A stretch of 28,978 bases of DNA from Oligoflexales bacterium (lineage in GTDB: Bacteria > Bdellovibrionota_B > Oligoflexia > Oligoflexales > Bog-1112), in the NCBI GenBank assembly GCA_045105515.1, contig JBGCDR010000158.1, positions 1 to 28,978 on the forward strand, given 5' to 3'. Each line of letters begins with the position of its first letter. Within the stretch, counting starts at the first letter, position 1. The translations under genes and the position numbers were made by a program. Shown one piece after another: positions 11,018 to 27,769 of the stretch. Under the pieces are notes generated by a model. That model was not told the origin of the DNA. It did no database searches and saw only the letters and a list, made by a program, of their open reading frames with translations.

Positions 11018-11733
11018 TGGAAGTTGCTAAAATTATTGCAGTCATCCATGCCAGAGGGGGATCAAAGAGAATTCCTCTTAAGAACATAAAACCACTCAAT
11101 GGCACTCCACTAATTGTTTATTCAATAACTTCATGTCTGAAATCTAAGTATCTTGATCGAGTAATAGTTTCGACTGATCATGAACATATTAAAAGTATAT
11201 CACTTGGGGCAGGCGCTGAGGTGCCATTTGATAGACCAAAGGATTTGTCAGAAGATGTACCATCAGAATTGGTAACTAAACATGCTGTTGAATTTGTTGA
11301 AAATGAGCAAGGTGAAAAGATTGATATAGTTGTTACAATTCAACCAACGACACCTTTTTTTAGCGCGGAAGATATTGATGCAACTATAGAGCTCATCCGC
11401 AAATCTGATAAGTTTAATACTGCATTCACGGTTTCGAAAGTTTCAGAGAGGCCTGAGTGGATGTTTTATAAGTCTGGGGATCACCTTGTTTCTTATGAAA
11501 AAAATAAACTACAGGGAGATATAGGAGTTGTTCAAAGTTTGAAGGAATTGTGGCACCCTAATGGTGCAATCTACGTCACCCGACGCCCCACGCTTTTCGA
11601 AGGTGGGGTTTTAATTGATGATTCACCAGCTGGCCATGAGATGTCTCATGAAAGTTCAGTTGACATAGACGAACCTATAGACTTTTTATTCGCGGAATTT
11701 ATAGCTAAAAATCTAAATGAACATAAACTTTAA
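11017..11733 (+). CDS. neuA: Acylneuraminate (CMP-ulosonate) cytidylyltransferase
   Basis: IHARGGSKRIPLKNI, VIVSTD, RPKDLSED, QPTTPF, NGAIY, SVDIDEPIDF. The start overlaps the upstream stop (TGATG at 11015-11019), so 11017 is preferred over 10966. Confidence 0.9.
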   Translation: MEVAKIIAVIHARGGSKRIPLKNIKPLNGTPLIVYSITSCLKSKYLDRVIVSTDHEHIKSISLGAGAEVPFDRPKDLSEDVPSELVTKHAVEFVENEQGEKIDIVVTIQPTTPFFSAEDIDATIELIRKSDKFNTAFTVSKVSERPEWMFYKSGDHLVSYEKNKLQGDIGVVQSLKELWHPNGAIYVTRRPTLFEGGVLIDDSPAGHEMSHESSVDIDEPIDFLFAEFIAKNLNEHKL

Positions 11734-11768: not shown

Positions 11769-13172
11769 ATGGTGTTTCATTCTAACACATTTTTTGTTTA
11801 CATATCGCTGTTTTTATCTTTGTATTTCTTAATGAGACGATTAGGAAATACAGCTACAAAAGTTTATATATTGATTTTTAGCTATATATTTTATTCTTGG
11901 AGTTATCCACCCTACATTATCCTGCTTTTCTTGAGTACAATGGTCGATTTTATCGTTGGAAAGAAGATATATTTTGAACAAAGCATACAAAGAAGAAAGA
12001 TATATTTAACAATTAGTTTAGCTTTGAATCTAGGATTGCTTGGTTTCTTTAAATATACAAACTTTTTCTTAGATAATATAGCTAATCTTTTCACTATTGA
12101 AAAAGATTATATCGATATTATACTGCCCGTAGGAATTTCTTTTTTTACTTTTCAGAGTATGTCTTATACGATTGACGTGTATAGAAAAGTTATTAAATAC
12201 GAAGAATCATTTTTAGATTTTGCAGTCTACATCTCATTTTTCCCACAATTAGTAGCTGGTCCTATTGTATTGGCGAAAGACTTCTTAATTCAGCTTAAAG
12301 ATAGCAGAAATATTGATCTAAATTCAGTGTTCAGCGGTTTTTATCTGATTATATTGGGGTATTTTTTAAAGTCAGTTGTAGCCGATAATCTTTCTGTTGG
12401 CGCTGATAACTTTTTTATGAGTCCTTCAAATTTTAATCTTATTGAATCATGGTATTATTTATATTCCTATGCTTTTCAGATCTTTGGCGATTTCGCAGGA
12501 TATTCATATATAGCAATTGGTATAGCTAAAATAATTGGATATCAATTACCAACTAATTTTAATTACCCGTATCTTGCTACTTCTATTACCGACTTTTGGA
12601 GAAGGTGGCATATATCTCTTTCTACTTGGCTAAAAAACTATCTATATATATCTCTTGGTGGAAACCGGATAAGCCCAGCCAGAACTAGCCTCAATCTGAT
12701 GATTACGATGCTGTTGGGGGGGCTTTGGCATGGTGCTAATTGGAACTTTGTTATCTGGGGTGGAATCCATGGCTTAGCTTTGGTGGTAGATAAAAAAATG
12801 GTTTTATTAGCACCAAGTTACTACAATTCAAGTAACCTAGTTGTAAAGTCATTTCAGATATTCATAACGTTCAATATTGTATGCTTGTCATGGATTTTTT
12901 TTCGAACTCAAGATATAACTCATTCTATACAGGTTCTAAATGCACTTTTTCTCAACGAGAATGGAATATTGATACCCCATCTTTTAGGAAGAGTAGCATT
13001 TTTTCTTGGAGTAAGTGTTTATGTATTCGTTGCAATTGATAGCTATCTTAAATCCTACAAAATAGTTCGGCAATTCCAGTTCGTCTTTTATTCTGCAGCA
13101 GTTCTGCTCATGTTTGTCCTAAGCTTGGGTTTAGGTATGAGGTCAAGCAGTTTTATTTATTTTCAATTTTAA
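11769..13172 (+). CDS. MBOAT family O-acyltransferase (AlgI/DltB-like)
   Basis: LPVGISFFTFQSMSYTIDVY, FFPQLVAGPI, DFAGYS, NFNYPY, FWRRWHISLSTWLKNYLYI, GLWHGANWNF; polytopic membrane protein. Confidence 0.95.
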   Translation: MVFHSNTFFVYISLFLSLYFLMRRLGNTATKVYILIFSYIFYSWSYPPYIILLFLSTMVDFIVGKKIYFEQSIQRRKIYLTISLALNLGLLGFFKYTNFFLDNIANLFTIEKDYIDIILPVGISFFTFQSMSYTIDVYRKVIKYEESFLDFAVYISFFPQLVAGPIVLAKDFLIQLKDSRNIDLNSVFSGFYLIILGYFLKSVVADNLSVGADNFFMSPSNFNLIESWYYLYSYAFQIFGDFAGYSYIAIGIAKIIGYQLPTNFNYPYLATSITDFWRRWHISLSTWLKNYLYISLGGNRISPARTSLNLMITMLLGGLWHGANWNFVIWGGIHGLALVVDKKMVLLAPSYYNSSNLVVKSFQIFITFNIVCLSWIFFRTQDITHSIQVLNALFLNENGILIPHLLGRVAFFLGVSVYVFVAIDSYLKSYKIVRQFQFVFYSAAVLLMFVLSLGLGMRSSSFIYFQF

Positions 13173-13184
13173 AAGAGTAAAAAA

Positions 13185-14195
13185 ATGAGATATTTCACTG
13201 TTTTTATTTTATTCCTAGGAATAATAGGTTTTCTGCAGATAAAAACATCGGCAGAAAGGAATATAAAATATTTTTATCCAGATTGGTACAGAATTTCTAA
13301 AAACCTAAATGAAGCTGCAAAAGAAGGCATTAGTAATGTGGGTTTGATAGTTGGTAATTCTTATACCTATACGGGTGTAAACCCGGTATTATTGGATCGG
13401 AGTGATATTAAGTATTATAACCTGGCAAGGGGGGGGACCTCTTCAGTAGAATCAATGATTTGGTTGATTAGAAATAAGGTTTTTCCCAATCAGCTTCTTA
13501 TAGAGTTAAATTCCACACATCTCAGTGATCGCTATTTTGGAAAATTTTCTGCAACTCCCACAAATAATCAAGATAAATGGTTTGATATTTTTAAGAAGGG
13601 AATTGAGATTGACTTAAGGTATTTTAGTTCGAGATATCTACCTTTTGTTAATTATCGTATTAATGCAATTGAAATCATTAAAGTTCTCAGAGCTGGCGGT
13701 CTTTACAAGCTGATACAATATATGTTTTTGCCTGATAAAAGAACGGTAGAACATTTTAAGAAAGTTCGTGTAAAGCATATTGATAAAGGATTTATGGAAG
13801 ATCATCGTGTTTTTACCAAAAAAGAGATCGAGGAAAGAATCGAAGAGCATACCTCAGATCTTGATACATATGCAGATAAAGTACCTTATTCAAAATATAC
13901 GGCAAAGATTCTAACGCAGTTGTCAGAACAATTTTATAACAATGGCACAAGAGTCATTTTTTTTAGGCTTCCTAAAAATGAGGCCATTATTAGTACTGAA
14001 AACGAGGTACTTTTTCATCAGTTTGAGATGGCAAGAAGTCTAGCTCGTGATAATGCTAAAGTTGATTATCTAGATATGACTGACAAGTCAATATTGAAAA
14101 TATTTACTAGCGGTCTAAGTGATGGCGCTCATTGGCTTCCTGAAGGAGCAGCAAGAATATCGGCATTCTTTGCAAAGAAACTTGAAACGATTTGA
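13185..14195 (+). CDS. Membrane-anchored SGNH-like acyltransferase partner (AlgJ/DltD-like)
   Basis: N-terminal hydrophobic anchor, IVGNS (block I), YNLARGG (block II), DGAH (DxxH). Starts 12 nt after the MBOAT gene. Confidence 0.75.
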   Translation: MRYFTVFILFLGIIGFLQIKTSAERNIKYFYPDWYRISKNLNEAAKEGISNVGLIVGNSYTYTGVNPVLLDRSDIKYYNLARGGTSSVESMIWLIRNKVFPNQLLIELNSTHLSDRYFGKFSATPTNNQDKWFDIFKKGIEIDLRYFSSRYLPFVNYRINAIEIIKVLRAGGLYKLIQYMFLPDKRTVEHFKKVRVKHIDKGFMEDHRVFTKKEIEERIEEHTSDLDTYADKVPYSKYTAKILTQLSEQFYNNGTRVIFFRLPKNEAIISTENEVLFHQFEMARSLARDNAKVDYLDMTDKSILKIFTSGLSDGAHWLPEGAARISAFFAKKLETI

Positions 14196-15324: not shown

Positions 15325-15978
15325 TTAAATCCGATATTCAGTAATTTTTTCTTTGGCAGGTACGCCATAAACTGTAACCCCTGATGGAACATTCTTTGTT
15401 ACAACCGAACCAGCCGCAATAATTGAGTTTCGCCCAATATCTTTGCATTGAAGAATAGTGCACCCTGTCCCAATTAGACATCCAGAATCAATATTTACCC
15501 CTCCTGAAATATTCACTCCTGGGTTAATTACGCAGTAGTCACCTACGTTGAGATCATGTCCATAAGTACTGCTTCTGTTTAAATAGTTAAACGAACCAAT
15601 TTTGATATCTGTCGTGAAAATATTTCCCGCGGTAACTATATTACCTTTTCCTAATGTTAGCCTATCTGCATCCCAAATAGTACCGGGATGAATAAGATTC
15701 GGAAATTTTAGTTTTTTGTTTTGAGATAGCTTTTTAGCTACTTTCTCTATAATTTTTGGATCACCTATTCCAATTGCTAAATTTAAGTGATCTTTTTCGA
15801 GAAGATCATCTTCTTTGTAGCATATTCTGTATTTTCCGACCATTTTTCCAATGTTAATATCTGATAGTTCGGCAAATCCGAGAATATTATACATTGGACG
15901 TAACCTATTTATCTGCTCTAGTAGAAAAGCTACTTCTTTAGCCGCACCACCTGCTCCTATAATTATTAAATCTTCCAT
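15325..15978 (-). CDS. neuD: Sugar O/N-acetyltransferase, NeuD/PglD hexapeptide-repeat family
   Basis: IIIGAGGAAKEV, IGIGDP, PNLIHP, left-handed beta-helix hexapeptide repeats, GHD, AGSVVTKNVP...GVPAK. Follows neuC. Confidence 0.88.
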   Translation of the reverse strand: MEDLIIIGAGGAAKEVAFLLEQINRLRPMYNILGFAELSDINIGKMVGKYRICYKEDDLLEKDHLNLAIGIGDPKIIEKVAKKLSQNKKLKFPNLIHPGTIWDADRLTLGKGNIVTAGNIFTTDIKIGSFNYLNRSSTYGHDLNVGDYCVINPGVNISGGVNIDSGCLIGTGCTILQCKDIGRNSIIAAGSVVTKNVPSGVTVYGVPAKEKITEYRI

Positions 15979-15992
15979 ATGTTCGCCTAGAT

Positions 15993-17156
15993 TTACCTAT
16001 TGAGGTTCATAAATCGCTTATTCAATAATGAGTCGCCATTTTTTAAATTTGAGATTATTTCATGAATTTTAGAAGATGTATCGCCTGAACCATAAATATT
16101 CTTGATATTCTGGCATTTGTTTAAATGTTCAGGTGCTAATGCAGTATTTATTGTGTTGAATATTTCAGGAACTGAATATCCAGTTTCCAATACATTTTGT
16201 GTTTTGATTCGTCCTTTCTGTCGAGTACCGATATCTACTGCTGGAACTTTATAGTATAAGGATTCGAGAATTCCGCTAGAAGAATTGCCTACCATAGCTG
16301 TTGCATGACTAATGGCTGAAAGGTAGCCCTCTGTTCCGAAATTGTTGACCAAATGGGCATTATCATTACTTTTTATATAATTTTTAATCTCTTTTGATAT
16401 TGTCGCCCCGTATGTGTCATTATTGGGGGCTGTAAATATTTTTTGAATATTAAATTTCTTTAGAGCTGTTAAAAGATTATTAACGTATGTTTGAGTTTGG
16501 TCTAACTCTTTGGTTACTGGGTGGAAAGTAATTAGTAGATATTCTTCTTTGAATTCAAAATTATAGCGCTCACTTAGTTCCGCAAGAGAAAGTGGATTTA
16601 GATTCAAAACATTTTCACAACTTAATGCACCAACATTAAAAATTCTATGTTGTTCAACCCCAAGTTGAGTAACCCTTCTTGCATATTCATCTGTGCTAAC
16701 AAAATGAAGGTGACTCATCATTGTCAAGGAATGTCTAATAGCGTCATCAAAAGCGCCTTCAGTTAACTCGCCTCCATGTATATGGGCAATTGGAATATTA
16801 AAAGGTAAGCTGGCAATAGCTGCAGACATAATTTCAAATCTATCACCTAAAAGCACCAAAATATCACATGGGTCGTTGGCAAACAAATCTGCAAAACCGA
16901 CAATACCTAGGCCAATGGATTTTGAAGTACCTTCTTTCGAGTGAGAAGCAAGTAAAGTATCAATTTTTCTGTATATAGGAAATTGGTCTTCGATAATACC
17001 ATTTATTGTGTAGCCTTGGTCAGGGCAAAGATGGCTACCGGTGACACATAGCTGCAAATTTAGATTAGGGTCAGTATAAATTCTAGATATCAGTGGCTTG
17101 AGTAATCCATATTCGGCTCGAGAGCCGGTAATGACTCCAACGGTTCGCTTACTCAT
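15993..17156 (-). CDS. neuC: Hydrolysing NDP-N-acetylhexosamine 2-epimerase (NeuC/LegG)
   Basis: TGSRAEYGLL, VTGSHL, LGDRFE, HIHGGELTEGAFDDAIRH, TFHPVT, GNSSSG, GTRQKGR, YGSG. Confidence 0.95.
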   Translation of the reverse strand: MSKRTVGVITGSRAEYGLLKPLISRIYTDPNLNLQLCVTGSHLCPDQGYTINGIIEDQFPIYRKIDTLLASHSKEGTSKSIGLGIVGFADLFANDPCDILVLLGDRFEIMSAAIASLPFNIPIAHIHGGELTEGAFDDAIRHSLTMMSHLHFVSTDEYARRVTQLGVEQHRIFNVGALSCENVLNLNPLSLAELSERYNFEFKEEYLLITFHPVTKELDQTQTYVNNLLTALKKFNIQKIFTAPNNDTYGATISKEIKNYIKSNDNAHLVNNFGTEGYLSAISHATAMVGNSSSGILESLYYKVPAVDIGTRQKGRIKTQNVLETGYSVPEIFNTINTALAPEHLNKCQNIKNIYGSGDTSSKIHEIISNLKNGDSLLNKRFMNLNR

Positions 17157-18190
17157 AATAGATCATCTCTATTGATTAATTGATCCGAACCAATCTTTTT
17201 CTTGGTAGTACGACCTAGTAAATTTGGTAAGTTGATGGGTTCGATTCCGGTACCAGGACGCTTAATTTTCAGCATAGATTCATCTAATACTATGCCTTTT
17301 TCTATTTCTCGGCAGGCCACAATACTTTTCCTTGATTTAGCACGGACGTCTAGTTCACACTCTGTTGGAACTTTTACCCCATCTCCAAGCGCCGACTCGA
17401 TTGATCTTATCCCTTGTACGAGATCAAAGAGTTCATTTGGCTCCAATGAACAAGCATGATCTGGACCTTTTTGTCGTCGGTTTTCGGTAAAGTGTTTTTC
17501 GATTATACACGCGCCCCTTGCCACGGCAGCAAACGAAATTAGATTACCCATGTGATGATCGGAATAGCCTACTGGGATATTAAAAGCTTGTTTCAAGGTG
17601 TCGAGGCATCGTAGGTTTGAATATTTAGATTCAGCGGGATAAGAACTAACGCAATGAAGCAGAGCAAAATCTGTTCGCCTGTGATTCTGCATGATCTGAA
17701 TGGCTTGATCTACCTCGCCAAGAGTGCTCATTCCAGTCGAAATAATTAGAAACTTACCTTTTTTTGCTAGGAAATCTAATAAGGGTGTATTTGTCAGTTC
17801 ACCAGATCCAAGTTTAATGATTTCTAGCCCCATTTTAAATAAGAATTCAGCGCTGCTTTTGTCAAAGGGAGAGGATATAAATATTATGCCCCTAGATTTG
17901 CAGTGCTCCTGTATCTTCTCAAAATCTGAAAATGGTAATGCTAAGTCTTTTATCATTTCCAGCATAGAGTTACTATGATCACCATCTAGTTTCTGATAAT
18001 TCGCTTTTTGAGCAACTGAAGATACCACTTCACCCGGTATAAATGTTTGGAACTTAACAGCATTTGCTCCTGCTTCGACGGCGATATCTACCAATTTAAG
18101 TGCTTTATTTAGGTCTCCATTATGATTAACTCCAGCTTCTGCAATTATAAAGCAAGCATGGTTCGGACCAATTTTTATGGGTTTATCCAC
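17153..18190 (-). CDS. neuB: Nonulosonic acid synthase (NeuB/LegI type) with C-terminal SAF/antifreeze-like domain
   Basis: FIIAEAGVNHNGD, VKFQTF, KLGSGELTN, STGM, LHCVSSYP, GYSDH, IEKHFT, GPDH and a SAF domain containing KRPGTG. GTG start preceded by GGAG. Confidence 0.95.
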   Translation of the reverse strand: MDKPIKIGPNHACFIIAEAGVNHNGDLNKALKLVDIAVEAGANAVKFQTFIPGEVVSSVAQKANYQKLDGDHSNSMLEMIKDLALPFSDFEKIQEHCKSRGIIFISSPFDKSSAEFLFKMGLEIIKLGSGELTNTPLLDFLAKKGKFLIISTGMSTLGEVDQAIQIMQNHRRTDFALLHCVSSYPAESKYSNLRCLDTLKQAFNIPVGYSDHHMGNLISFAAVARGACIIEKHFTENRRQKGPDHACSLEPNELFDLVQGIRSIESALGDGVKVPTECELDVRAKSRKSIVACREIEKGIVLDESMLKIKRPGTGIEPINLPNLLGRTTKKKIGSDQLINRDDLL

Positions 18191-18486
18191 CGTAAAAACT
18201 CCGCCTTCATATTATGATTTCGATTCACCAAGCATATCTTTAGTGAATTAAATTTGCTAGCGTATATTCAATTGGCTACATTTGCGGAATAGTCGAAAAA
18301 AACTTTGTAGCAGTAAAATGCTGGAGTCATTGAGATACTAGTTAAATTTAATTGTATGATCATCAATTGATGACTATGATATTTTAGATAAATTCAAATG
18401 AATCTCAGTAAGTCTTTATTCGGCCGATTTTATACCCGGATTTACAAACAATTTTGGTGAATGTTGGCTTTTAAAATGGAGTGGTC

Positions 18487-20199
18487 ATGGAAGAGAGAAA
18501 TGCTGTCTTGTATGATGGTGCGACAATTCAAGAAGCCATTCATTCTATTGATCAAGCTGTTTCAAAAGGCGGTGAATCTGGAATAGCAGTAGTGCTTGAT
18601 TCTAAGAAAGTCTTGCAAGGTGTTATTACCGATGGGGATATTCGAGGAGCGATTTGTAAAGGCATTAGCTTTAATAAACCAGTTGAATCAATAATGTCAA
18701 AATATCCAGTTTGCATACAAAGAGGTTTTGAAAATAACTCGGCGCGAAGAATATTGAGCCAACTTAGGGAAAAGAAAGTTAGTGTAAGTAATGTAGTATT
18801 GGTGGATGAAGAAAATCGATATCTTGATCTCTTGAATATTAACTCCCTATTTCTTCATGATGATGTTTGGCATAAAAAAATAGCCGTTTATGGTTTGGGG
18901 TTTGTAGGCCTTACCTTGGCTCTTGTTTTGGCAGAGGATGGATTATTTGATGTTGTAGGCTTAGATATCAATAAAGATGTGGTAAATACACTAAATTCAG
19001 GGAAAGCCACTTTTTTTGAAAAAGGTTTACAATCCCTATTAGAACAGACCCTATCAACTGAACATCTTTCAATTCTTCACGCTGAAAGTTGCGAGGCTGA
19101 TGTACATATTATTTCCGTGGGAACTCCTCTGGATAAGGATAATAAACCGGACTTTTCATATTTAAATATCGCCGCAAGAAATATTTCCAAGGTTTTGAAA
19201 GAGCACGATTTAGTAATTTGTCGTTCAACTGTACCCGCAGGAACAACAAGAAAATTCCTCATACCACTTCTTGAACAGTTATCAGGATTGAAGGCATCAA
19301 AAGATTTTAGTGTTGCGTTCGCCCCCGAGAGAACTGTCGAAGGTAATGCACTGATGGAATTGAGGTCATTGCCGCAAGTTGTGGGAGGACTAACTAGAAA
19401 TTGTGTCGAAAAAGCTTCGGCATTATTTAAAAAAATTACTAGGACAGTTATACCGATGGAATCATTGGAGGCTGCGGAAATAGTCAAATTAATAAATAAT
19501 ACTTATCGAGATGTGATATTTTCCTTTGCGAATGAGGTTTCATATCTATGTGACAACTATAATTTAGAAGCGTTAAAATTAATTTCAGCCGCAAATGAGG
19601 GGTATCCAAGAAATCCAATTCCTATGCCTAGTCCAGGGGTTGGTGGCATATGCCTATCTAAGGATCCCTATTTGTACTGTTACCATGAAGCAGACAATAT
19701 GTTTGCGCCCATCAACTATGGAAAATATAGCAGGGAGACAAATCAATTAGGGGTGGAATATGTTCTCCATCAAATTGATAGATTCATGAATATGCATCCT
19801 GACATTGATGCTACGAAAGTTATGATTGTTGGAATTGCCTTTAAAGGAAAGCCTGAAACCTCTGATCTGAGGGGTTCATTGGCGATAACGTTGTCGAAAA
19901 GGCTTGTAAATAGGGGTTATAGTGTAAGTGGATTTGATGCTGTTGTCGGAGCAGAAGAAATCTCAAAACATGGGATAAATCCTCTTAGTTCATTATCTGA
20001 GGGGTTTGCATCTTGTAATATTTTCCTCTTTATGAACAATCATGAGGAAAACATGAACTTCGAGTTATTTAGTGAACTCAAAAGGGTAAATAGGCCAGCT
20101 CTTTTCTTTGATGGTTGGGGGCAATTCAATCGTAACGAAATTGAAGATGTGCCGAGAATGGTTTATGCGACAATGGGATATATCACAGGAAAAGACTAG
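18487..20199 (+). CDS. CBS-domain-containing nucleotide-sugar 6-dehydrogenase (UDP-glucose/GDP-mannose dehydrogenase family, WecC-like)
   Basis: The first ~125 aa look like a CBS pair (LQGVITDGDIRGAI, VESIMS, VLVDEENR). Then GLGFVGL, SVGTP, RSTVPAGTT, APERTVEG, AEIVKLINNTYRD, GVGGICLSKD (catalytic Cys), AFKGKPETSDLR. ATG at 18487, or GTG at 18481. Confidence 0.9.
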   Translation: MEERNAVLYDGATIQEAIHSIDQAVSKGGESGIAVVLDSKKVLQGVITDGDIRGAICKGISFNKPVESIMSKYPVCIQRGFENNSARRILSQLREKKVSVSNVVLVDEENRYLDLLNINSLFLHDDVWHKKIAVYGLGFVGLTLALVLAEDGLFDVVGLDINKDVVNTLNSGKATFFEKGLQSLLEQTLSTEHLSILHAESCEADVHIISVGTPLDKDNKPDFSYLNIAARNISKVLKEHDLVICRSTVPAGTTRKFLIPLLEQLSGLKASKDFSVAFAPERTVEGNALMELRSLPQVVGGLTRNCVEKASALFKKITRTVIPMESLEAAEIVKLINNTYRDVIFSFANEVSYLCDNYNLEALKLISAANEGYPRNPIPMPSPGVGGICLSKDPYLYCYHEADNMFAPINYGKYSRETNQLGVEYVLHQIDRFMNMHPDIDATKVMIVGIAFKGKPETSDLRGSLAITLSKRLVNRGYSVSGFDAVVGAEEISKHGINPLSSLSEGFASCNIFLFMNNHEENMNFELFSELKRVNRPALFFDGWGQFNRNEIEDVPRMVYATMGYITGKD

Positions 20200-20204
20200 T
20201 TGAA

Positions 20205-21050
20205 ATGGTTTATATTGCTACACTAGATGAAAAAAGTTTTGAGTTTATAGATGGGGCAGCTAAAAAGTATGTTGTTGAGTTGCCTGGTAAGGAGCAATTA
20301 AAGTGCTGGCATACAACCAAAGACGCATATAACCAGGTGAAAAAGGGTGCTGTTTTATGGGCCTCTGGGGGAGGTACTTACTTAATAAATGATGAATGGA
20401 TTCCATTGGTAAAAAGAGATGGGAGCAGCCCTACAAATCCTAATAAATTGACGATCGCAACAGGTAGAGCAGATTCAATTGAAGAGCTTTATTGTCCAGA
20501 TAAGATTGCCAGAGAGCTTTTTGAGGAAATTATAATCCTTGAGGGTGGCAATATTATCGCTCCCATTTTTTGTGAAAATAGTTTTCCTCTTAGTAATGAA
20601 CAGATCCAGGAAGTGATAAGCGGGTCAGCTGTCGCAGCAGGGATCAAGTATGATAATGTGGAAGCTGTACCCGCTACCGTCCCACATGATATGAGCTCAG
20701 ACACGATTGTAGTGAAATCTACAGATGGTTTGATTAATAATGTAATAGAGAGTTTTTTGCACTATGAGAAAGATACTGGAGAGGTTAATTTCCTAGCTGT
20801 TGTAAAACTAAATCTTCAAGATATTTCAGTCTGTTCATTTAAAGATGCTGAAGTAGTTGTTGATGATCAAAAATCTTCAATTTTAGATAGAGAGATATAC
20901 CTTTTTCATCTTCCAACAAAAAAGTTATACAGCACATCAGCTGATGGAAGCTTGTATATGGAGGAAGAAAAGTTAATTTCATTGACGCCACACGCTAGAT
21001 ATCTGATCGATTTGATTGAAAATAAGCTAGATAAGGAGCAGAGATGGTAA
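20205..21050 (+). CDS. Hypothetical protein with a divergent Nudix box (putative nucleotide-sugar pyrophosphatase)
   Basis: LVKRD...PNKLTIATG-RADSI-E-ELYCPDKIA-RELFEE is G-x5-E-x9-RELFEE, against the canonical G-x5-E-x7-REUXEE. Tightly coupled to both neighbours. Confidence 0.65.
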   Translation: MVYIATLDEKSFEFIDGAAKKYVVELPGKEQLKCWHTTKDAYNQVKKGAVLWASGGGTYLINDEWIPLVKRDGSSPTNPNKLTIATGRADSIEELYCPDKIARELFEEIIILEGGNIIAPIFCENSFPLSNEQIQEVISGSAVAAGIKYDNVEAVPATVPHDMSSDTIVVKSTDGLINNVIESFLHYEKDTGEVNFLAVVKLNLQDISVCSFKDAEVVVDDQKSSILDREIYLFHLPTKKLYSTSADGSLYMEEEKLISLTPHARYLIDLIENKLDKEQRW

Positions 21051-22000
21051 ATATTATCGCTGAATTTTGCCAGAATCATAACGGTGACTACAGTATACTA
21101 AAAGAGATGATATATGCAGCTGCTGAGGCAGGGGCTACTCATGGTAAAATCCAGTCAATTTTTGCTTCTGATCTAACTAAAAGAGATAGATTTGAGACAG
21201 GTTTAGTTGAAAAAGGGATTACTAAGGTTATCAAGAGACCCTACAGAAGTGAATATGAGCGACTTAAAAAGCTTGAATTGGATTATGAACACCATAGTAA
21301 ATTCATCAGTGACTGTAATAAAGCCAATCTAAAACCCCTTACAACCTGCTTTACTCAGTCTTCTATTGACTATCTTTCTAAATTTGACTGGGAAGCAATC
21401 AAAGTTGCCAGTTATGACTGCAGCTCTTATCCTATGCTAGAGAGGCTAAGTAAAATATTTCCCAAAGTTGTAGTATCTACTGGGGCAACCTTTGACGAGG
21501 AAATTGAAGGAGCAGCTAAAATATTAAATGAAAGCGGTAGTAAGTGGTGTTTTCTTCACTGTGTGACAATTTATCCTACGCCATTAGATCATCTTAATCT
21601 TAAGCGTATGGAGTATCTAAAGAAATATTCACCTGAAGTTGGCTTAAGTGACCATTCATTAGTGTCCAAGGATGGTGTTAAAGGCTGCTTGGCTGCTATT
21701 TTTTTGGGCGCGCAATGGCTTGAGAGACACTTTACCATACTCCCTGAATCAGAGACTAAAGATGGGATTGTATCCATTAGGCCAGAGCATATTACTGAGA
21801 TTTTAACTTTTTCAAAGTACAACAAAGCAGAGAAGGAAGCCTATATTAAGGAGCACATTCCAGAATTCGAACAAATGATTGGTAATGAAACTCGAAGCCT
21901 TACTCCTGCTGAATTATTAAATAGAGATTATTACAGAGGTCGATTTGCAGCACATGTCGGCGATAAAGTAGTTTATAACTGGGAATCAATGAATACATAG
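21044..22000 (+). CDS. Divergent NeuB-family PEP-dependent ulosonate synthase lacking the SAF domain
   Basis: IIAEFCQNHNGD, KIQS, KVASYD, STGA, LHCVTIYP, GLSDHS, LERHFT. Ends at 318 aa with no KRPG-containing SAF domain. Confidence 0.88.
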   Translation: MVNIIAEFCQNHNGDYSILKEMIYAAAEAGATHGKIQSIFASDLTKRDRFETGLVEKGITKVIKRPYRSEYERLKKLELDYEHHSKFISDCNKANLKPLTTCFTQSSIDYLSKFDWEAIKVASYDCSSYPMLERLSKIFPKVVVSTGATFDEEIEGAAKILNESGSKWCFLHCVTIYPTPLDHLNLKRMEYLKKYSPEVGLSDHSLVSKDGVKGCLAAIFLGAQWLERHFTILPESETKDGIVSIRPEHITEILTFSKYNKAEKEAYIKEHIPEFEQMIGNETRSLTPAELLNRDYYRGRFAAHVGDKVVYNWESMNT

Positions 22001-22011
22001 GGATCTTTGTA

Positions 22012-22731
22012 ATGGAACACAATATATTAGGAGTCATTCCGGCTAGGGGTGGATCTAAGGGGATTCCAGATAAAAATATATATCCTTTATGTGGAAAACC
22101 TTTAATAGCTTATACAATTGAATCGGCGAAGAAATCGAAGCTTTTTAGTGATCTGATAGTGTCAACTGATTCAGAACAAATAGCTGAAATTGCGAGTAAA
22201 TGGGGTATTGATATTCCATTTATCAGACCATCACAGTTCGCTACAGATACTGCTCATGCAGTAGATGTAATGAAGCATGCCCTATATGAAATGGAAGGAC
22301 AAAGTGGCAAAACTTATGAATTTATAGCTATGTTACAACCAACTACACCCTTAAAAGATGTAGAAGATATTGATGCATGCCTTAAAAAAATCATAGAAAC
22401 AGGCTGTGACTCAGTCGTTTCACTTGTAGATGTAGGCGCCAATCACCCTGCAAGAATGTATACTGTAAACAAAAAGGAACAATTAGTATCGATATTTGAT
22501 GAGGGAGTTGCCATGAAACCGCGACAAGAGCTGCCCCCTGTCTATATTCGAAGTGGTGCTGTATATGTAACCAAAAGAAATATTTTGCTTGAACACAATA
22601 GTTTAATCGGGAAGGACTGTAGAGCGTATATCGTTCCACAAAGCAGGTCAGTTAACATTGATGAGTATCAAGATATTGTATTGGCAGAATATTATGTAAA
22701 CGAAAAACTAAAAAGACATAATCATGTATAG
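22012..22731 (+). CDS. neuA: Acylneuraminate (CMP-ulosonate) cytidylyltransferase, second copy
   Basis: IPARGGSKGIPDKNI, VSTDS, PFIRP, LQPTTPL, RQELP, GAVY, SVNIDE. Confidence 0.92.
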   Translation: MEHNILGVIPARGGSKGIPDKNIYPLCGKPLIAYTIESAKKSKLFSDLIVSTDSEQIAEIASKWGIDIPFIRPSQFATDTAHAVDVMKHALYEMEGQSGKTYEFIAMLQPTTPLKDVEDIDACLKKIIETGCDSVVSLVDVGANHPARMYTVNKKEQLVSIFDEGVAMKPRQELPPVYIRSGAVYVTKRNILLEHNSLIGKDCRAYIVPQSRSVNIDEYQDIVLAEYYVNEKLKRHNHV

Positions 22732-23689
22732 AATATTAAATTTAGATCCTAAATCCTTCAAAGGAGCATCTCTTGATTTATTAATGCTCAACGCTCAGAT
22801 CGACAGCCATGAACAAATTGGAAATATCGATAGAGAGCTTACTAAAAAATATTTAGGTATGGTATGCAGGTTGGGAGTGACCCTAGACGCTCAAATCCTA
22901 TCTAGATTCGAAAACCTATCATTTATAGCAACAGTAACAACTGGGTTGGATCATATTGATCTAGATTATTGTGATAGAAATAATATAAATGTCATCAGTC
23001 TAAAAAATGAAAAACAGTTTCTACACACTATTCGAGCCACTCCGGAACATACATGGGCACTTTTACTAGCGTTACTCCGCCGAATAGAGCCTGCTTTCCA
23101 GTCCGTTAAAGAACAGCGGTGGGAACGCCAAAATTTCTTTGGAAGAGAACTCTTTGGAAAGAAGATTGGGATCATTGGTTTTGGCAGGGTAGGTTCGATT
23201 ATAGGAAGGTATGCTAATGCATTTGGAATGGAAGTCATTGCAAATGATATAGTTGATATTATGCCAGGAGATTTTCTTGTTCGTCAGGTAAGCTTAAACC
23301 AGTTGTTAGAGGATTCTGATATTGTAACTGTGCATGTACCCCTAGAATCAGATACTGCAAATTTAATAGGATACAATGAGCTATCATTGATGAAAAGAAG
23401 TTCTTTTCTAGTAAATACCTCCAGGGGAGCCATAGTTAATGAATCAGCATTGATAAAAGCCCTTGAAAATTCGATTATTGCAGGTGCGGCAGTTGATGTA
23501 CTGTCAGACGAAACAAAACCTAATTATCACTATAGTAGTAACAAGATGATCTCTTTCGCAGCATCAAGCGAAAATCTATTAATAACTCCACATATTGCTG
23601 GGAGTACAATAGAATCAATGGAGAACACCTCGTTATTTATAGCAAAAAAGATTGTAAAGATTCTAGAAAGACTAAAATATGAGTTATGA
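22724..23689 (+). CDS. D-isomer-specific 2-hydroxyacid dehydrogenase (SerA-like, no ACT domain)
   Basis: TTGLDHID, GIIGFGRVG, VTVHVPL, LVNTSRG, AAVDVL, ITPHIAG. Confidence 0.92.
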   Translation: MYRILNLDPKSFKGASLDLLMLNAQIDSHEQIGNIDRELTKKYLGMVCRLGVTLDAQILSRFENLSFIATVTTGLDHIDLDYCDRNNINVISLKNEKQFLHTIRATPEHTWALLLALLRRIEPAFQSVKEQRWERQNFFGRELFGKKIGIIGFGRVGSIIGRYANAFGMEVIANDIVDIMPGDFLVRQVSLNQLLEDSDIVTVHVPLESDTANLIGYNELSLMKRSSFLVNTSRGAIVNESALIKALENSIIAGAAVDVLSDETKPNYHYSSNKMISFAASSENLLITPHIAGSTIESMENTSLFIAKKIVKILERLKYEL

Positions 23690-24326
23690 CGTTTTTGTCT
23701 TTGACTGGGATGGAACTCTTGTCGATTCAATGAAGTTCAAAATTAACAATCTAGCAATTTTGTTAAATGATGAATATAAAGCTGACAGGAATGATGTACG
23801 TATGAGTTATGAGGCTCATTCTGGAATTCCTAGAAAACAGCTTTTTAAAAAGATAATTAATGAAGTTGCTAATTTTGATATCAGTGAAAGCGACTTTAAT
23901 AGATTATCTATAAAATTTACAGATATGAATAGAGAAACATATTTGAAAAATGGACTAAAACTATTTCCGGATGCCGAAGTCATGCTAGAAAAATTAAGAG
24001 AAAAAATAAACGTAAAGATATATATATCTTCGTCGGCTAGCCAAGAAGAGCTGGATGCAGCTGTTAAAAGCGCAGCATATATGTATAGATTTAATGGTAT
24101 GTTTGGTAGTAAGGAAGGCTTTTCGAAGGGGATAGAGCATATTAGTAGAATTAAGAAGTTAGAGCAGTGCAATAGCGATCAGATATTATTCGTTGGAGAT
24201 GATAAAAATGATGTTCGTTTAGGACAGCAGGCTGGAGTTGATACAAAAAGAATTTTGAGAAAAACAGATGCTAAGGATAGTAGCAAGTTTTTAGGCACTC
24301 TTAGTGAGCTTCTTCAATATACGTAA
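23679..24326 (+). CDS. HAD-superfamily phosphatase
   Basis: Motif I FDWDGTLVDS, motif II ISSS, a Lys in FSKG and motif IV FVGDDKND. Confidence 0.9.
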   Translation: MSYDVFVFDWDGTLVDSMKFKINNLAILLNDEYKADRNDVRMSYEAHSGIPRKQLFKKIINEVANFDISESDFNRLSIKFTDMNRETYLKNGLKLFPDAEVMLEKLREKINVKIYISSSASQEELDAAVKSAAYMYRFNGMFGSKEGFSKGIEHISRIKKLEQCNSDQILFVGDDKNDVRLGQQAGVDTKRILRKTDAKDSSKFLGTLSELLQYT

Positions 24327-24522
24327 ATAAATTTAAACCAAGTAGGCTTTGATATAAAATGAGTTATAGATGAATAATGCCTTAATATCGAATCTATTTT
24401 TCCTAATGATTGGTTTTGGCAATCTTTTCAGAAGCAAACATGACTTGAAAATTTAAATATTTTAGATTATTTAGCAGTTTTTGAATCTAGTAATATCTGA
24501 TCACTTATATCGAGGTTGCAAA

Positions 24523-25323
24523 ATGAGAAACGATGAACTGAAAGAATTTTACAACGAAATATATATTGGTGACAAGAATGAACATTTCTTAAAGTACAGA
24601 AATAATCAGGATGTCGGAAATGTTCATCAACTTGTTTATTCTTGGCTAGAAGAGCAAAATCTTTCAGGCAGCTACGAAATTTTAGATTTTGGTTGTGGTG
24701 AGGGTGGATTTCTAGGTAATTTAAATGGATGTAGGAATGGTGTTGGGTTAGATTATAGCTCAGTCGCAATTGAGACGGCAATAAACCGATACCCCAATGT
24801 GCAGTTTATTCTAGATGATATCACTGCAATTTCTCAGTTTACCAACAAGTTTGATGTTGTAACTTCCTTTGGGACAATCGAACATGTCGATGATCCAGTT
24901 GAAACTTTAAAATCTTTGAGTCTCGCTCTTAAAGATAATGGTATAATGATTATTTCATGCCCTTCATTTTTAAATATTAGGGGTGTAATATGGATGACTT
25001 TGGTATCATTATTTGATGTTCCGATGTCACTGAGTGATAAGCACTTTATCACAATACAAGATTTTAGAGATTATACTCAAGAATTGGATCTCAACCTAAT
25101 AGACTACCAATCGGTTGATTTTGATGTTGCACAAGGATCGTATTTTGAAAAGGATATGTCAAAGCGTCTAAATAATGCACTAAGAGACAATAGTATGGAT
25201 AATAAATACGTTTCGAGCTTAATTGAATGGGTAGAACGAAATAAAAAAGACTTCCCGGTAAATGAATACTCAGGAGCCGAAATGGTATATTTTATTAAAA
25301 AAATAAGAACTAATAAGTCCTGA
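24523..25323 (+). CDS. Class I SAM-dependent methyltransferase
   Basis: ILDFGCGEG, GLDYS, FDVVTSFGTIEHVDDP. ATG at 24523 preceded by GAGG, preferred over TTG at 24481. Confidence 0.88.
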   Translation: MRNDELKEFYNEIYIGDKNEHFLKYRNNQDVGNVHQLVYSWLEEQNLSGSYEILDFGCGEGGFLGNLNGCRNGVGLDYSSVAIETAINRYPNVQFILDDITAISQFTNKFDVVTSFGTIEHVDDPVETLKSLSLALKDNGIMIISCPSFLNIRGVIWMTLVSLFDVPMSLSDKHFITIQDFRDYTQELDLNLIDYQSVDFDVAQGSYFEKDMSKRLNNALRDNSMDNKYVSSLIEWVERNKKDFPVNEYSGAEMVYFIKKIRTNKS

Positions 25324-26347: not shown

Positions 26348-27769
26348 TTAATTAACTAATAAGGAGCAAACATTTTTTCCAACTCTCCCGTTTACAGGTA
26401 CGAATAACTCCTGATCTTTAATTACTTTCGATTTTTGAGTGCTGTATTTTTGGGGATTATCAATTAGTTGCTGTATTTTATTTAAATAATCTGAATACAA
26501 GTCGCTAGAGATTACAGATTTATACTTAGTAAATCCTTCAAAGGTCCAGTTGTATACTTTTACATTCATCACAATAGCACCACAGGCTAAAGCCCATAAA
26601 CCAGTTGACGATCCTGATGAAATATAAATATCACAAAACGGTACGATGCTAGCAGTTCCACTTCTCGCAATTTTACATTGGTATTTTCTTTCTAAAAATT
26701 CATAATTTTTTATTTCCATCTTTGGATGTAAAACCAATATTAGATTGGCGTCTAACTGGCAAGTTTGTTTCACGAGTTTCTCATTTATTTGCCAGTGTTC
26801 ATCCCATGAACTTACTATTCGATGCTCTTTTAGTTGAACTAGAGAAAGAACAAGTAATTTCTTATTTGGATTTAGGTCATATTTTAAGTAAACTTGTTCT
26901 TTTGACAAGTTTGACTTCCATTTATATAACTTATCAAGCTGTATGTGGCCAGTTGTAACAATACACTCATCAGCAACTCCTAGAGATTTGTATTCAGCTG
27001 CCATAGAGTAATCGTCGACACAAACGATGTCAGAGTAACTACCACCCCTAGTCCAAGGATTTTTTGGAAGACATTTCCAAATAGCCATAGCTAGTGTTTC
27101 ATGCGGTAGTGCAAATAATAATTTTTGGCCTTTTAAATTCACAAATTGATTGGGGAAATAATCTGAGACTAACCTTTTCAAAAGGCTATTTTTACTTAAG
27201 GACATTAATTGGCTTCCGAGCCTTCCAGCTGCAGTCATAGACCTATCAAAAAAAGCCGCATAAATAGTTATAATTTTGACATTAGAATTCTTACAAGCTT
27301 TCATTAACAATGCAACAGGTCCACCTAGATTATCTACGTAGGAGCAAAGGCTTTTTGGATCAATAATTTTAAGTAAACCCCAATTATAAAAGAAATATCG
27401 CAAATAAGAGAAAGATTCTGAAAGTGCCAATATCGTTATTAAAAATGATTGACTTCTATGGCCTATCATCCGGCATAAATAGCGATTTATGAGGGTGAGG
27501 GGTATAAGAAGGTAGGATAATAAAAATGAAAAGCACGCAATCAGCTTTATTAAAAAATGTGTCCTTGACAGTTTTACCATACTGAAATTAACTCTGCCAA
27601 AGAAGAAATAAGGTATATTATTTTTCTTACACCAATTGATCTTGTCTTTAGTGAGGTAATTCAGAGCAATGATCGGCTTTAATTGAACGGAAGATAATTG
27701 TAAGGCTATCTCAGATATAGATTGCCAGGCAGTATTGTTAATAGCTAAGAATATCACGTAATCTTTCAT
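26348..27769 (-). CDS. Putative GT-B glycosyltransferase, candidate CMP-ulosonate (sialyl/Kdo-type) transferase
   Basis: TTGHIQLDKL, LVLHPK and DIYISSGSSTGLWALACG recall the HP and S(S/T) motifs of CMP-sugar transferases and CDP-glycerol transferase-like GT-B proteins. Context contains two neuA/neuB sets. Confidence 0.55.
   Translation of the reverse strand: MKDYVIFLAINNTAWQSISEIALQLSSVQLKPIIALNYLTKDKINWCKKNNIPYFFFGRVNFSMVKLSRTHFLIKLIACFSFLLSYLLIPLTLINRYLCRMIGHRSQSFLITILALSESFSYLRYFFYNWGLLKIIDPKSLCSYVDNLGGPVALLMKACKNSNVKIITIYAAFFDRSMTAAGRLGSQLMSLSKNSLLKRLVSDYFPNQFVNLKGQKLLFALPHETLAMAIWKCLPKNPWTRGGSYSDIVCVDDYSMAAEYKSLGVADECIVTTGHIQLDKLYKWKSNLSKEQVYLKYDLNPNKKLLVLSLVQLKEHRIVSSWDEHWQINEKLVKQTCQLDANLILVLHPKMEIKNYEFLERKYQCKIARSGTASIVPFCDIYISSGSSTGLWALACGAIVMNVKVYNWTFEGFTKYKSVISSDLYSDYLNKIQQLIDNPQKYSTQKSKVIKDQELFVPVNGRVGKNVCSLLVN

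Follow-up and report, generated by a model that had tools for sequence, protein, structure and literature searches.

A candidate bacterial pathway to a C9-carboxylated nonulosonic acid, centred on a SAF-less clade of NeuB-family synthases

Six genes of an Oligoflexales bacterium (assembly GCA_045105515.1, contig JBGCDR010000158.1; the window, i.e., the whole stretch of DNA analysed, comprises 28,978 nucleotides) represent one version of a widespread bacterial pathway, the product of which is probably a surface sugar akin to sialic acid and bearing acid groups at both ends. According to the boldest reading, to which a probability of roughly 0.55 is assigned, bacteria of at least 15 phyla would make a fourth nonulosonic core, a 1,9-dicarboxylic "nonulosarate" (C9-carboxy Kdn), by means of a uronate-fed clade of NeuB enzymes devoid of the SAF domain, the nucleotide being released by three or four unrelated and interchangeable enzymes, among them a guanylyltransferase homologue working in reverse, and feedback operating via the CBS pair of the dehydrogenase. 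In the accessible text of PMC8157484, the known nonulosonic acids are distributed among three cores (Kdn, Neu, as well as Pse/Leg/Aci), all with a neutral C9.

The six open reading frames (Table 1) are tightly packed, with junctions of +5, -7, +11, -8 and -11 nt, in agreement with the earlier note, which had described co-oriented genes separated by 11 nt or less or overlapping. Gene 1 may start at GTG 18481 or at ATG 18487, the latter being the likelier start because a GGAG occurs just 5' of it. None of the six genes encodes a NeuC, LegG or PseG, as had been stated before, and neuC lies in a divergently transcribed neuB1-neuC-neuD unit that starts about 290 nt upstream. This unit, on which the earlier note was silent, as it was on the downstream methyltransferase, is a canonical one (424.1 bits for TIGR03569, 435.4 for TIGR03568 and 173.5 for TIGR03570, all above the NCBIfam cut-offs); it is separate from the conserved module and a possible source of ManNAc. 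The methyltransferase is located 154 nt downstream of the operon and often accompanies the module, possibly in a tailoring role; its homologues occur at 11 of the 41 genome loci, as well as at further metagenome loci.

Table 1. Features of the six-gene operon and its immediate surroundings in the window.
Feature	Coordinates	Strand	Family or fold match
Canonical neuB1 (with SAF)-neuC-neuD unit	15325..18190	-	TIGR03569, TIGR03568, TIGR03570
CBS-pair + NDP-hexose C6 dehydrogenase (gene 1)	18487..20199	+	PF00571, PF03721/00984/03720
Divergent, putative Nudix-fold protein (gene 2)	20205..21050	+	Fold, family profile; no Pfam/NCBIfam match
SAF-less NeuB-family PEP-condensing synthase (NeuB2)	21044..22000	+	PF03102
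Predicted CMP-ulosonate synthetase (NeuA2), cytidylyltransferase	22012..22731	+	PF02348
D-2-hydroxyacid dehydrogenase	22724..23689	+	PF02826/PF00389
HAD-IA phosphatase	23679..24326	+	PF13419; TIGR01549 above cut-off
SAM methyltransferase	24481..25323	+	Methyltransf_31/23

The arrangement is not due to chance, since the complete gene order recurs in a Bacteriovoracaceae locus (L001) and five of the six genes recur in another locus (L043), up to the end of the contig. The conserved unit is smaller than six genes and consists of the dehydrogenase, a release module, NeuB2 and NeuA. From its sequence, NeuB2 falls into a SAF-less, uncharacterised clade of large size, which comprises at least 3,098 sequence clusters from at least 15 phyla and the members of which are presently labelled in databases as legionaminate synthase, SpsE or "general stress protein". 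Among 83 dereplicated locus groups, a sugar C6-dehydrogenase occurs in the NeuB2 locus of 66 and NeuA in 68, while NeuC is found in just seven, mostly alongside a second canonical NeuB. Where the local dehydrogenase is lacking, an orthologue was located elsewhere in three of the five genomes checked, twice with a Nudix or GT-B partner. The recurrent neighbours of the NeuB2 loci comprise neither a non-hydrolysing 2-epimerase nor a kinase or mutase; the recurrent SDRs correspond to Gmd/Fcl, and DegT is only sporadic.

NeuB2 is assigned by sequence and model to the NeuB/sialic acid synthase superfamily. It matches PF03102 with 169.6 bits (gathering threshold 22.1) over a TIM barrel, no SAF domain being detected by the Pfam domain search, and its AF2 model (pLDDT 96) adopts the NeuB fold, the top 10 Foldseek matches all being NeuB, PseI or SpsE, with approximately 24-28% identity to the solved NeuB structures. 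The metal- and PEP-binding residues, mapped by alignment (Nme E25, K53, Q55, T110, K129, S132, S154, Y186, S213, H215, E234, H236 and D247), are conserved in 119-120 of 120 NeuB2 sequences. The roles of the catalytic Glu are documented in the accessible part of PMC8208679. The scores remain far below the equivalog cut-offs for N-acetylneuraminate synthase (TIGR03569, 175.9 versus 399.65) and PseI (137.9 versus 340.25).

With respect to the substrate, Tyr124 and Thr175 are present in 118 of the 120 sequences, and R47, R65, R73, R294 and R300 in 119-120. Tyr124 aligns with Gly133 of the N. meningitidis enzyme, a site where, in the portion of PMC7371886 available, a Phe clashes with the N-acetyl group of ManNAc and where an aromatic residue, as in PseI, is the sign of a gluco-configured C2, as handled in the Pse pathway; invariant arginines fall in the loop which the same text ties to C4-C6 specificity. 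A bulky residue such as Tyr124 should thus block ManNAc, and would also be compatible with a gluco-configured C2. Tyr124/Thr175 are altered only in L035 and L041, two copies which are not sisters (AU p 7e-17) and sit near NeuC, and no orthologue of the dehydrogenase or of its partner was found in these two genomes. The genomes G043 and G044 may be incomplete.

The dehydrogenase forms, as judged from sequence, a subfamily of its own. The catalytic Lys336 and Cys391 (numbered from GTG 18481) occur in all 87 homologues, and the CBS pair most closely matches that of arabinose-5-phosphate isomerase. The enzyme apparently fits neither the AlgD nor the WecC/Cap5O residue signature. A WecC/Cap5O identity was discarded, since only three of nine residues specific to the UDP-ManNAc dehydrogenase group (PMC4794789, Table 3) are kept, namely Arg152, Arg211 and Val254, and the score for NF008286 is 219.9 for a cut-off of 459. 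An AlgD identity was likewise rejected: of the markers His217, Ala263 and Arg122, only Arg122 is present. Arg122 is a marker of GDP-mannose dehydrogenases. In seven loci, which form a single clade, the CBS-type enzyme is replaced by a CBS-less AlgD orthologue with His217 and Arg122 (E 1.4e-165 to AlgD in L038), next to a NeuB2 that keeps the same invariant residues. These data point to GDP-mannose, short of proof, as the most likely substrate rather than a UDP-HexNAc of the WecC type; both ManC and Gmd homologues are present in the genome, so that GDP-mannose is available.

It could be assumed, instead, that the substrate oxidised by the CBS-dehydrogenase is a UDP-HexNAc or NDP-glucose, so that the same route would yield a C9-carboxylate with an N-acetyl group or a gluco C5, e.g., Neu5Ac-9-oate or its C5 epimer. 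The window enzyme is indeed nearer to WecC/CalS8 than to AlgD, its nearest solved relatives being UDP-ManNAc dehydrogenases and CalS8, the Arg152/211/244 set of UDP-ManNAc dehydrogenases is retained in it and in 80/80 CBS-type copies, and the aromatic residue at position 124 of NeuB2 is the gluco-type mark mentioned above. However, Arg244 is also found in UDP-glucose dehydrogenase, six of the nine WecC-specific residues are missing whereas Arg122 is present, the recurrent neighbours comprise no 2-epimerase, the NeuB2 residues are identical in the AlgD-type loci, and one of the release modules points to GDP, which makes this alternative rather unlikely.

The slot beside the dehydrogenase is filled by one of three mutually exclusive modules, i.e., a Nudix-like protein with a HAD, as in the window, a GT-B-fold protein that no HAD accompanies, or a homologue of mannose-1-phosphate guanylyltransferase (ManC) with a HAD. 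Gene 2 matches no Pfam or NCBIfam model, including PF00293, which gives weak matches in four of the 25 members of the family. Its Nudix-like character emerges from Atlas features (0.92), from structural comparison (TM 0.52/0.66, on a low-confidence model of pLDDT 0.52) and from a match of the family profile to a MutT-like structure (E 0.013). The Nudix box reads GX5EX7REUXEEXGU; in gene 2, the G, RE and EE (G87, R103-E104 and E107-E108, in 25/25 members) are invariant, with a spacing two residues wider and without the final xGU. The protein is proposed, from sequence and model, as a putative NDP-uronate pyrophosphatase yielding uronate-1-phosphate. The dehydrogenase and the Nudix protein are fused in L049 and in four clusters at 50% identity, and a distant HAD-Nudix fusion occurs in P0263. 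In the ManC homologue, the Trp preceding the Asp of the catalytic motif is changed to Arg in 10/10 module copies, and the same Trp is retained in three solved enzymes, three ordinary ManC of the loci and the ManC of the genome itself; this replacement suggests a guanine nucleotide combined with an anionic C6.

The GT-B partner, considered as a candidate PseG-like NDP-sugar hydrolase and carrying an invariant N-terminal His17, finds its best fold matches in true glycosyltransferases (GT1/MurG), PseG not being among the matches listed, and the PseG model TIGR03590 recognizes it weakly (4/17, best E 2.8e-5), without surpassing the models for MurG and MJ1255. This resemblance favours another view, in which the NDP-uronate feeds a glycosyltransferase, the GT-B protein being a real one, and NeuB2 makes ordinary Kdn from mannose (GDP-mannose via Nudix and HAD) or Neu5Ac from ManNAc of the neighbouring NeuC. 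NeuC adjoins the genes here and in L001, NeuB2 and the dehydrogenase are unlinked in three genomes, and UDP-ManNAcA and CMP-Neu5Ac are separately used capsule precursors in different serotypes of C. jejuni (PMC10919079, as far as its accessible text goes). Against two such independent cassettes, the dehydrogenase remains a companion of NeuB2 in 12 phyla or more, even when swapped for AlgD, and is fused to the Nudix protein in four clusters; the GT-B partner excludes Nudix and ManC, whereas other putative transferases vary freely among loci; NeuC is infrequent, Tyr124 disfavours ManNAc, and a neutral mannose would not need the Trp to Arg change. This view is held to be improbable.

The HAD is confined to the two modules that would yield a sugar-1-phosphate, occurring within the loci in 18/23 Nudix- or ManC-type groups versus 0/36 GT-B groups, an exclusion that represents only two independent pairs (sign test p 0.5). 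More generally, the ManC-type loci form approximately one clade, and the module and dehydrogenase swaps correspond to few independent events. The HAD is also absent beside dehydrogenase and Nudix in L028, despite long flanks, and in G045. The pattern fits the release of a free uronate before NeuB2 and stands against a 9-phosphate route. The alternative raised in the earlier note, with a HAD acting after NeuB2, has been weakened because this HAD family is missing from the loci of all 36 GT-B groups, which speaks against a phosphatase obligatorily linked with the synthase, the count referring to the loci within the genomes. Kdo and Kdn phosphatases are HAD of type IIIA. Although the operon has a HAD and the invariant arginines of NeuB2 could bind a phosphate, a Kdn-9-phosphate-like route, with NeuB2 taking a hexose-6-phosphate and the HAD dephosphorylating the product, is very improbable, given the unchanged NeuB2 residues in the GT-B groups, a window HAD of type IA (TIGR01549 above cut-off, HAD-IIIA below), the lack of a recurring kinase or mutase and a dehydrogenase and Nudix protein left unexplained.

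Four-electron oxidation of C6 is the established chemistry of the dehydrogenase family. In the preferred uronate-fed route, the CBS-dehydrogenase would carry out the first committed step and oxidise an NDP-hexose, for which GDP-D-mannose is the likeliest candidate, to the uronate, its CBS pair probably sensing the CMP-sugar end product; the Nudix protein would split the pyrophosphate into mannuronate-1-phosphate and GMP; the HAD would remove the phosphate to liberate D-mannuronate; NeuB2 would condense it with PEP into 3-deoxy-D-glycero-D-galacto-non-2-ulosarate (C9-carboxy Kdn); and NeuA2 would produce CMP-3-deoxy-nonulosarate. This order, suggested in the earlier note, is supported by the fusions, the module swaps, the AlgD swap and the specificity residues of NeuB2. 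On sequence grounds, a uronate-derived C9-carboxylate of some configuration appears rather probable, and C9-carboxy Kdn made from GDP-mannuronate in particular comes slightly short of an even chance. NeuA2 (PF02348, 87.1 bits versus a gathering threshold of 22.6) is predicted to be a CMP-ulosonate synthetase nearer to PseF/NeuA than to KdsB (176.3 bits for PseF, below the cut-off of 205.7; KdsB models at most 62.6). The D-2-hydroxyacid dehydrogenase, present in 49/122 loci, adjoining NeuA in 41 of these 49 and retaining the motifs of its family in 42 full-length copies, is an optional, putative tailoring enzyme. Since it and the methyltransferase may optionally act on the product, the displayed sugar may be C8-oxidised, C8-epimerised or methylated. 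From stereochemical reasoning, the proposed product would present at C8 an alpha-hydroxy acid of the L type, ill-suited to a D-specific dehydrogenase.

The pseudaminic acid pathway (PseG, PseI, PseF) offers the closest logic, with an NDP-sugar modified first, freed of its nucleotide, condensed with PEP and activated by CMP, and with an aromatic residue at the C2-specificity site; here, in contrast, C6 would be oxidised instead of deoxygenated, release would depend on Nudix and HAD, and NeuB2 lacks the SAF domain. A pseudaminic or legionaminic pathway was rejected from the PseI score and from the lack of a conserved set of 4,6-dehydratase, aminotransferase and N-acetyltransferase. The Neu5Ac (NeuC, NeuB, NeuA) and legionaminic pathways share the NeuB-fold synthase with its intact Mn/PEP site and the NeuA-type synthetase, but the module has no NeuC/LegG, position 133 (N. 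meningitidis numbering) carries Tyr in place of Gly and SAF and its Arg314 are absent; the Neu5Ac pathway was discarded on these features, on the TIGR03569 score and on the position of NeuC outside the conserved unit. The Kdn-9-phosphate pathway, known from Bacteroides and animals, resembles the proposed route by a probably mannose-configured, non-acetamido precursor and a HAD phosphatase, and differs by a HAD seemingly placed before the synthase, a C6-oxidised nucleotide sugar as precursor and a C9 carboxylate in the product. AlgD and WecC/Cap5O possess the same four-electron machinery with catalytic Lys and Cys, but the uronate seems here to lose its nucleotide rather than being handed on to a polymerase, and the CBS pair is added at the N-terminus. 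Dha (3-deoxy-lyxo-heptulosaric acid) is, in the accessible sources, a natural dicarboxylic ulosonic acid, but of seven carbons, and no tie to these genes was found. The methyl glycoside of 9-carboxy-Neu5Ac, likewise dicarboxylic, is a product of chemical synthesis, according to the available part of PMC12654856; no natural nine-carbon ulosarate was found in the literature searched.

If the proposal is true, a doubly anionic nonulosonic acid would represent a new surface monosaccharide, and the hypothesis provides exact masses to seek in existing DMB and nucleotide-sugar surveys. Functions are proposed, at the same time, for two unnamed families, one of Nudix and one of GT-B type, as well as for an altered guanylyltransferase. 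NeuB2, which may accept uronates, becomes a candidate synthase for chemoenzymatic synthesis. Owing to the thousands of environmental sequences of the NeuB2 clade that are labelled otherwise, pathways predicted from the annotation of a NeuB are probably erroneous where this clade is concerned.

The six ORFs of the operon lie where the earlier note had placed them (18487-24326), with junctions of +5, -7, +11, -8 and -11 nt. The gene families it had named are borne out by Pfam and NCBIfam for five of them, namely a nucleotide-sugar dehydrogenase carrying a CBS pair (DH, with residues numbered from the GTG at 18481), a NeuB devoid of a SAF domain (NeuB2), a CMP-ulosonate synthetase (NeuA), a D-2-hydroxyacid dehydrogenase (2HDH) and a HAD-IA phosphatase (HAD). 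Gene 2 has no family match in either collection; it is probably a divergent Nudix protein, as indicated by Atlas features and structure, by a MutT-like structure retrieved with the family profile (E 0.013) and by an invariant RE/EE core. The product of this gene set is probably a uronate-derived, C9-carboxylated ulosonate (probability about 0.65). Its narrower identification as C9-carboxy Kdn (3-deoxy-D-glycero-D-galacto-non-2-ulosarate), formed from mannuronate and PEP, is tentative and falls somewhat short of even odds.

Relatives of NeuB2 were found in 41 genome loci, at 47-58% identity and under labels from 15 phyla, and the best 80 of 484 metagenome relatives were added to the locus set; a clade profile at E<=1e-60 recovered at least 3,098 clusters among 8,000 candidates scored. 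Merging the 121 loci and the window at 80% identity in NeuB2 gave 83 groups. With neighbour profiles derived from the initial 41 loci plus the window and run on all loci, many of them on short contigs, 66 of the 83 groups contain the DH and 68 contain a NeuA. Among five genomes checked in which the DH was missing from the NeuB2 locus, three possess a DH orthologue elsewhere, one adjoining a Nudix and another a GT-B partner; the remaining two are the genomes of L035 and L041 (see below). The conserved synteny expected for all six genes holds in part: the exact order recurs in a Bacteriovoracaceae locus (L001), but 2HDH occurs in only 49 of 122 loci, and the conserved unit therefore consists of DH, a partner, NeuB2 and NeuA. 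Since a search of 40 relatives of this genome met only ordinary NeuBs (E 3.7e-45 at best) and no member of the NeuB2 clade, and the contig has a GC content of 35.9% versus 38.3% for the genome, the cassette has a patchy distribution and is probably mobile. No member of the clade turned up in the plasmid and phage collections (best 32% and 29%); the plasmid dehydrogenases closest to the DH (36%) belong to a GT/Fcl polysaccharide cluster lacking NeuB, and 2HDH has only generic plasmid matches (30-37%).

Depending on the group, the slot beside the DH is occupied by a GT-B protein of about 340 aa (36 groups), a Nudix (16 groups, including the L049 fusion) or a homologue of the mannose-1-phosphate guanylyltransferase ManC (7 groups), and no group contains two partner types together. 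A HAD is present in 18 of the 23 groups with Nudix or ManC and in 0 of the 36 with GT-B; four of the five exceptions end at a contig edge, the fifth (L028) being a genuine absence. If all three partners free a sugar from its nucleotide, this pattern is the expected one, because a pyrophosphatase or a reversed pyrophosphorylase gives a 1-phosphate in need of a phosphatase, while a glycosidic hydrolase needs none. The Fisher p of 5e-11 for the exclusion of HAD and GT-B ignores kinship, is overstated and is not relied on; on a quick tree, the exclusion comes down to some three changes, with two pairs that are independent, and a phylogenetically corrected test is not significant. The prediction that a HAD would flank the displaced DH-Nudix pair of one genome (G045) failed. 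The DH is fused to the Nudix in L049 and in four clusters at 50% identity, and a predicted complex of DH residues 130-572 with the Nudix protein scored 0.00, which is evidence for neither side. The GT-B partner (AF2 pLDDT 92, invariant His17) retrieves GT1/MurG transferases at Z of about 22; the PseG HMM matches only 4 of 17 such proteins and, PseG not being among the fold matches listed, the candidate hydrolase role of the GT-B partner is drawn from gene context. The familyless protein of L031 resembles a GT-B protein by eye but is unmatched by the partner profile. A barrel protein in two other loci is possibly a fourth solution for release. A more distant family of 290-330 aa (P0238-P0273 and Atlas clusters), automatically named 'metal ABC transporter ATPase', contains a Nudix-like core, joined to a HAD in one of its proteins (P0263). 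Downstream of the ManC-type module, L074, L078, L087 and L091 encode long NeuB fusions, of about 640 aa when complete, that have a NeuA of their own.

The catalytic Lys336 and Cys391 of the DH are kept in 87/87 homologues. Its CBS pair is most similar to the one in arabinose-5-phosphate isomerase (E 3.7e-4; also TIGR00393), a pair that binds CMP-Kdo; this would be in keeping with feedback by the end product on a first committed step. Compared with the group-specific residues set out in the accessible text of PMC4794789, the DH exhibits three of nine UDP-ManNAc-dehydrogenase markers and, for GDP-mannose dehydrogenase, Arg122 without His217 or Ala263; these residues set it apart as a separate subfamily, whose substrate is not readable from sequence. 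Arg244 is also kept in the DH; in WecC this residue touches the N-acetyl group (PMC4794789), which counts against GDP-mannose, though UDP-glucose dehydrogenase uses the same Arg to bind the 2-OH. GDP-mannose is favoured by three lines. Seven loci of one clade, ordered DH-GT-B-NeuB2, have as their DH an orthologue of AlgD that lacks the CBS pair; the second and third lines are the guanylyltransferase homologue and Tyr124 of NeuB2. In the ManC homologue, Arg replaces in 10/10 sequences the Trp that precedes the motif Asp in solved and ordinary ManC enzymes; this Trp is a putative counterpart of Trp224 of RmlA, an equivalence that alignment did not establish, and the analogous W224H change of RmlA was reportedly made for uronate acceptance. 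W224H is described as widening sugar-1-phosphate tolerance (PMC9415975, in part).

The metal and PEP site of NeuB2 is intact in 119-120 of 120 sequences, its model adopts the NeuB fold, and a conserved Arg-rich C-terminal motif (N293-F301) stands in place of the SAF domain. SAF-less NeuBs of environmental bacteria are mentioned without function in the accessible part of PMC8208679. Tyr124 aligns with Gly133 of the N. meningitidis enzyme, a site that is Gly in Neu and Leg synthases and at which the Phe of PseI clashes with the acetyl group of ManNAc (PMC7371886, in part). Tyr124 and Thr175 are kept in 118/120 sequences; the exceptions, L035 and L041, have Ile and Ser there, and no other consensus position is changed in both. 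These two are not sisters (AU p 7e-17; quick trees with an outgroup of only six canonical NeuBs), both lie near a hydrolysing NeuC, and their possibly incomplete genomes showed neither an orthologue of the DH nor a GT-B partner or a Nudix. This looks like a convergent reassignment to an N-acetyl sugar, in two events only, which would imply another substrate for the main clade. That NeuB2 makes an ordinary sugar next to a separate uronate cassette is unlikely, if still worth weighing. The loop after strand 2, assigned to C4-C6 specificity in PMC7371886, is lengthened and contains invariant R47, R65 and R73, candidate ligands for a C6 carboxylate or, alternatively, for a phosphate. A 9-phosphate route is very improbable.

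With respect to tailoring, 2HDH adjoins NeuA in 41 of its 49 loci. The C8-OH/C9-carboxylate would be the sole alpha-hydroxy acid after CMP activation, so 2HDH fits a C9 carboxylate; the C8 centre would be L-type, and a D-specific enzyme would therefore suit the C8 epimer or the 8-oxo form. 2HDH could also supply an acyl group. In many Nudix-type loci a CmoA-like gene is followed by a second methyltransferase-fold gene, together with a distinct NeuA subtype; 2HDH is never present there, and carboxymethylation of a sugar is possible.

Two neighbours escaped the earlier note. One, a canonical neuB1-neuC-neuD unit, starts about 290 nt upstream and is transcribed divergently; the other, a methyltransferase gene, lies just downstream. 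In the gap between the unit and the operon, no promoter signal rose above chance in a scan. The unit has no NeuA of its own, and the Gfo/Idh-DegT fusion, whose gene overlaps that of a second NeuA, may provide an amino-substituted ulosonate in its service.

Features of the window and of related loci
Feature	Location	Strand	Remark
neuB1-neuC-neuD	window 15325-18190	-	transcribed away from the operon; same pairing within one operon in L001
Gfo/Idh oxidoreductase-DegT aminotransferase fusion, 793 aa	window 8636-11733	+	overlaps second NeuA
MBOAT acyltransferase and familyless partner	window 11769-14195	+	likely O-acylation pair; MBOATs also near NeuB2 in L014, L041, L052
473-aa protein	window 26348-27769	-	no Pfam/NCBIfam match; 28% like an L038 ORF; candidate CMP-ulosonate transferase
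Crowded glycan locus	window 651-28746		seven SAM methyltransferase-fold genes, 2OG-Fe(II) oxygenase, second DegT-like gene, RfbF/RfbG-like pair
Third NeuB of the genome, NeuA nearby	G000:C204:2142-6452		open frame 291 aa; probably SAF-less, outside NeuB2 clade
CmoA-like genes	L005-L007, L009-L014, L016, L019, L028, metagenome loci (e.g. L006:8995-10802)		carboxy-SAM synthase TIGR00740, 158 bits, under cut-off
Endonuclease-IV/xylose-isomerase-like barrel	L070:6774-7778, L090:7069-7953		release-enzyme slot beside NeuB2; pair 46% identical
396-aa protein of no family	L031:6818-8008		directly before NeuB2; GT-B-like by eye

In a literature search that left subscription journals, a frequent home of bacterial glycan structures, mostly outside its scope, neither the term 'nonulosaric' nor a description of NeuB with an NDP-sugar dehydrogenase/CBS and uronic, GDP-mannuronic or dicarboxylic sugars was found, nor a cultured NeuB2 carrier with a known glycan structure. 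In their accessible text, PMC10919079, PMC3438082 and PMC9875253 present standard routes or nothing further, and 9-carboxy-Neu5Ac appears in PMC12654856 as a synthetic compound only. Two surveys (PMC8157484; bioRxiv 10.64898/2026.04.20.719630) report, supplements aside, unassigned and higher-carbon ulosonates and no dicarboxylic one; their supplements might contain a dicarboxylic mass. By membership tests, the gene set falls outside the Neu, Leg, Pse and Kdn-9-phosphate pathways, in line with the earlier note. In its general course, the proposed pathway would resemble the pseudaminic acid route, in which an NDP-sugar is modified, released, condensed with PEP and activated by CMP.
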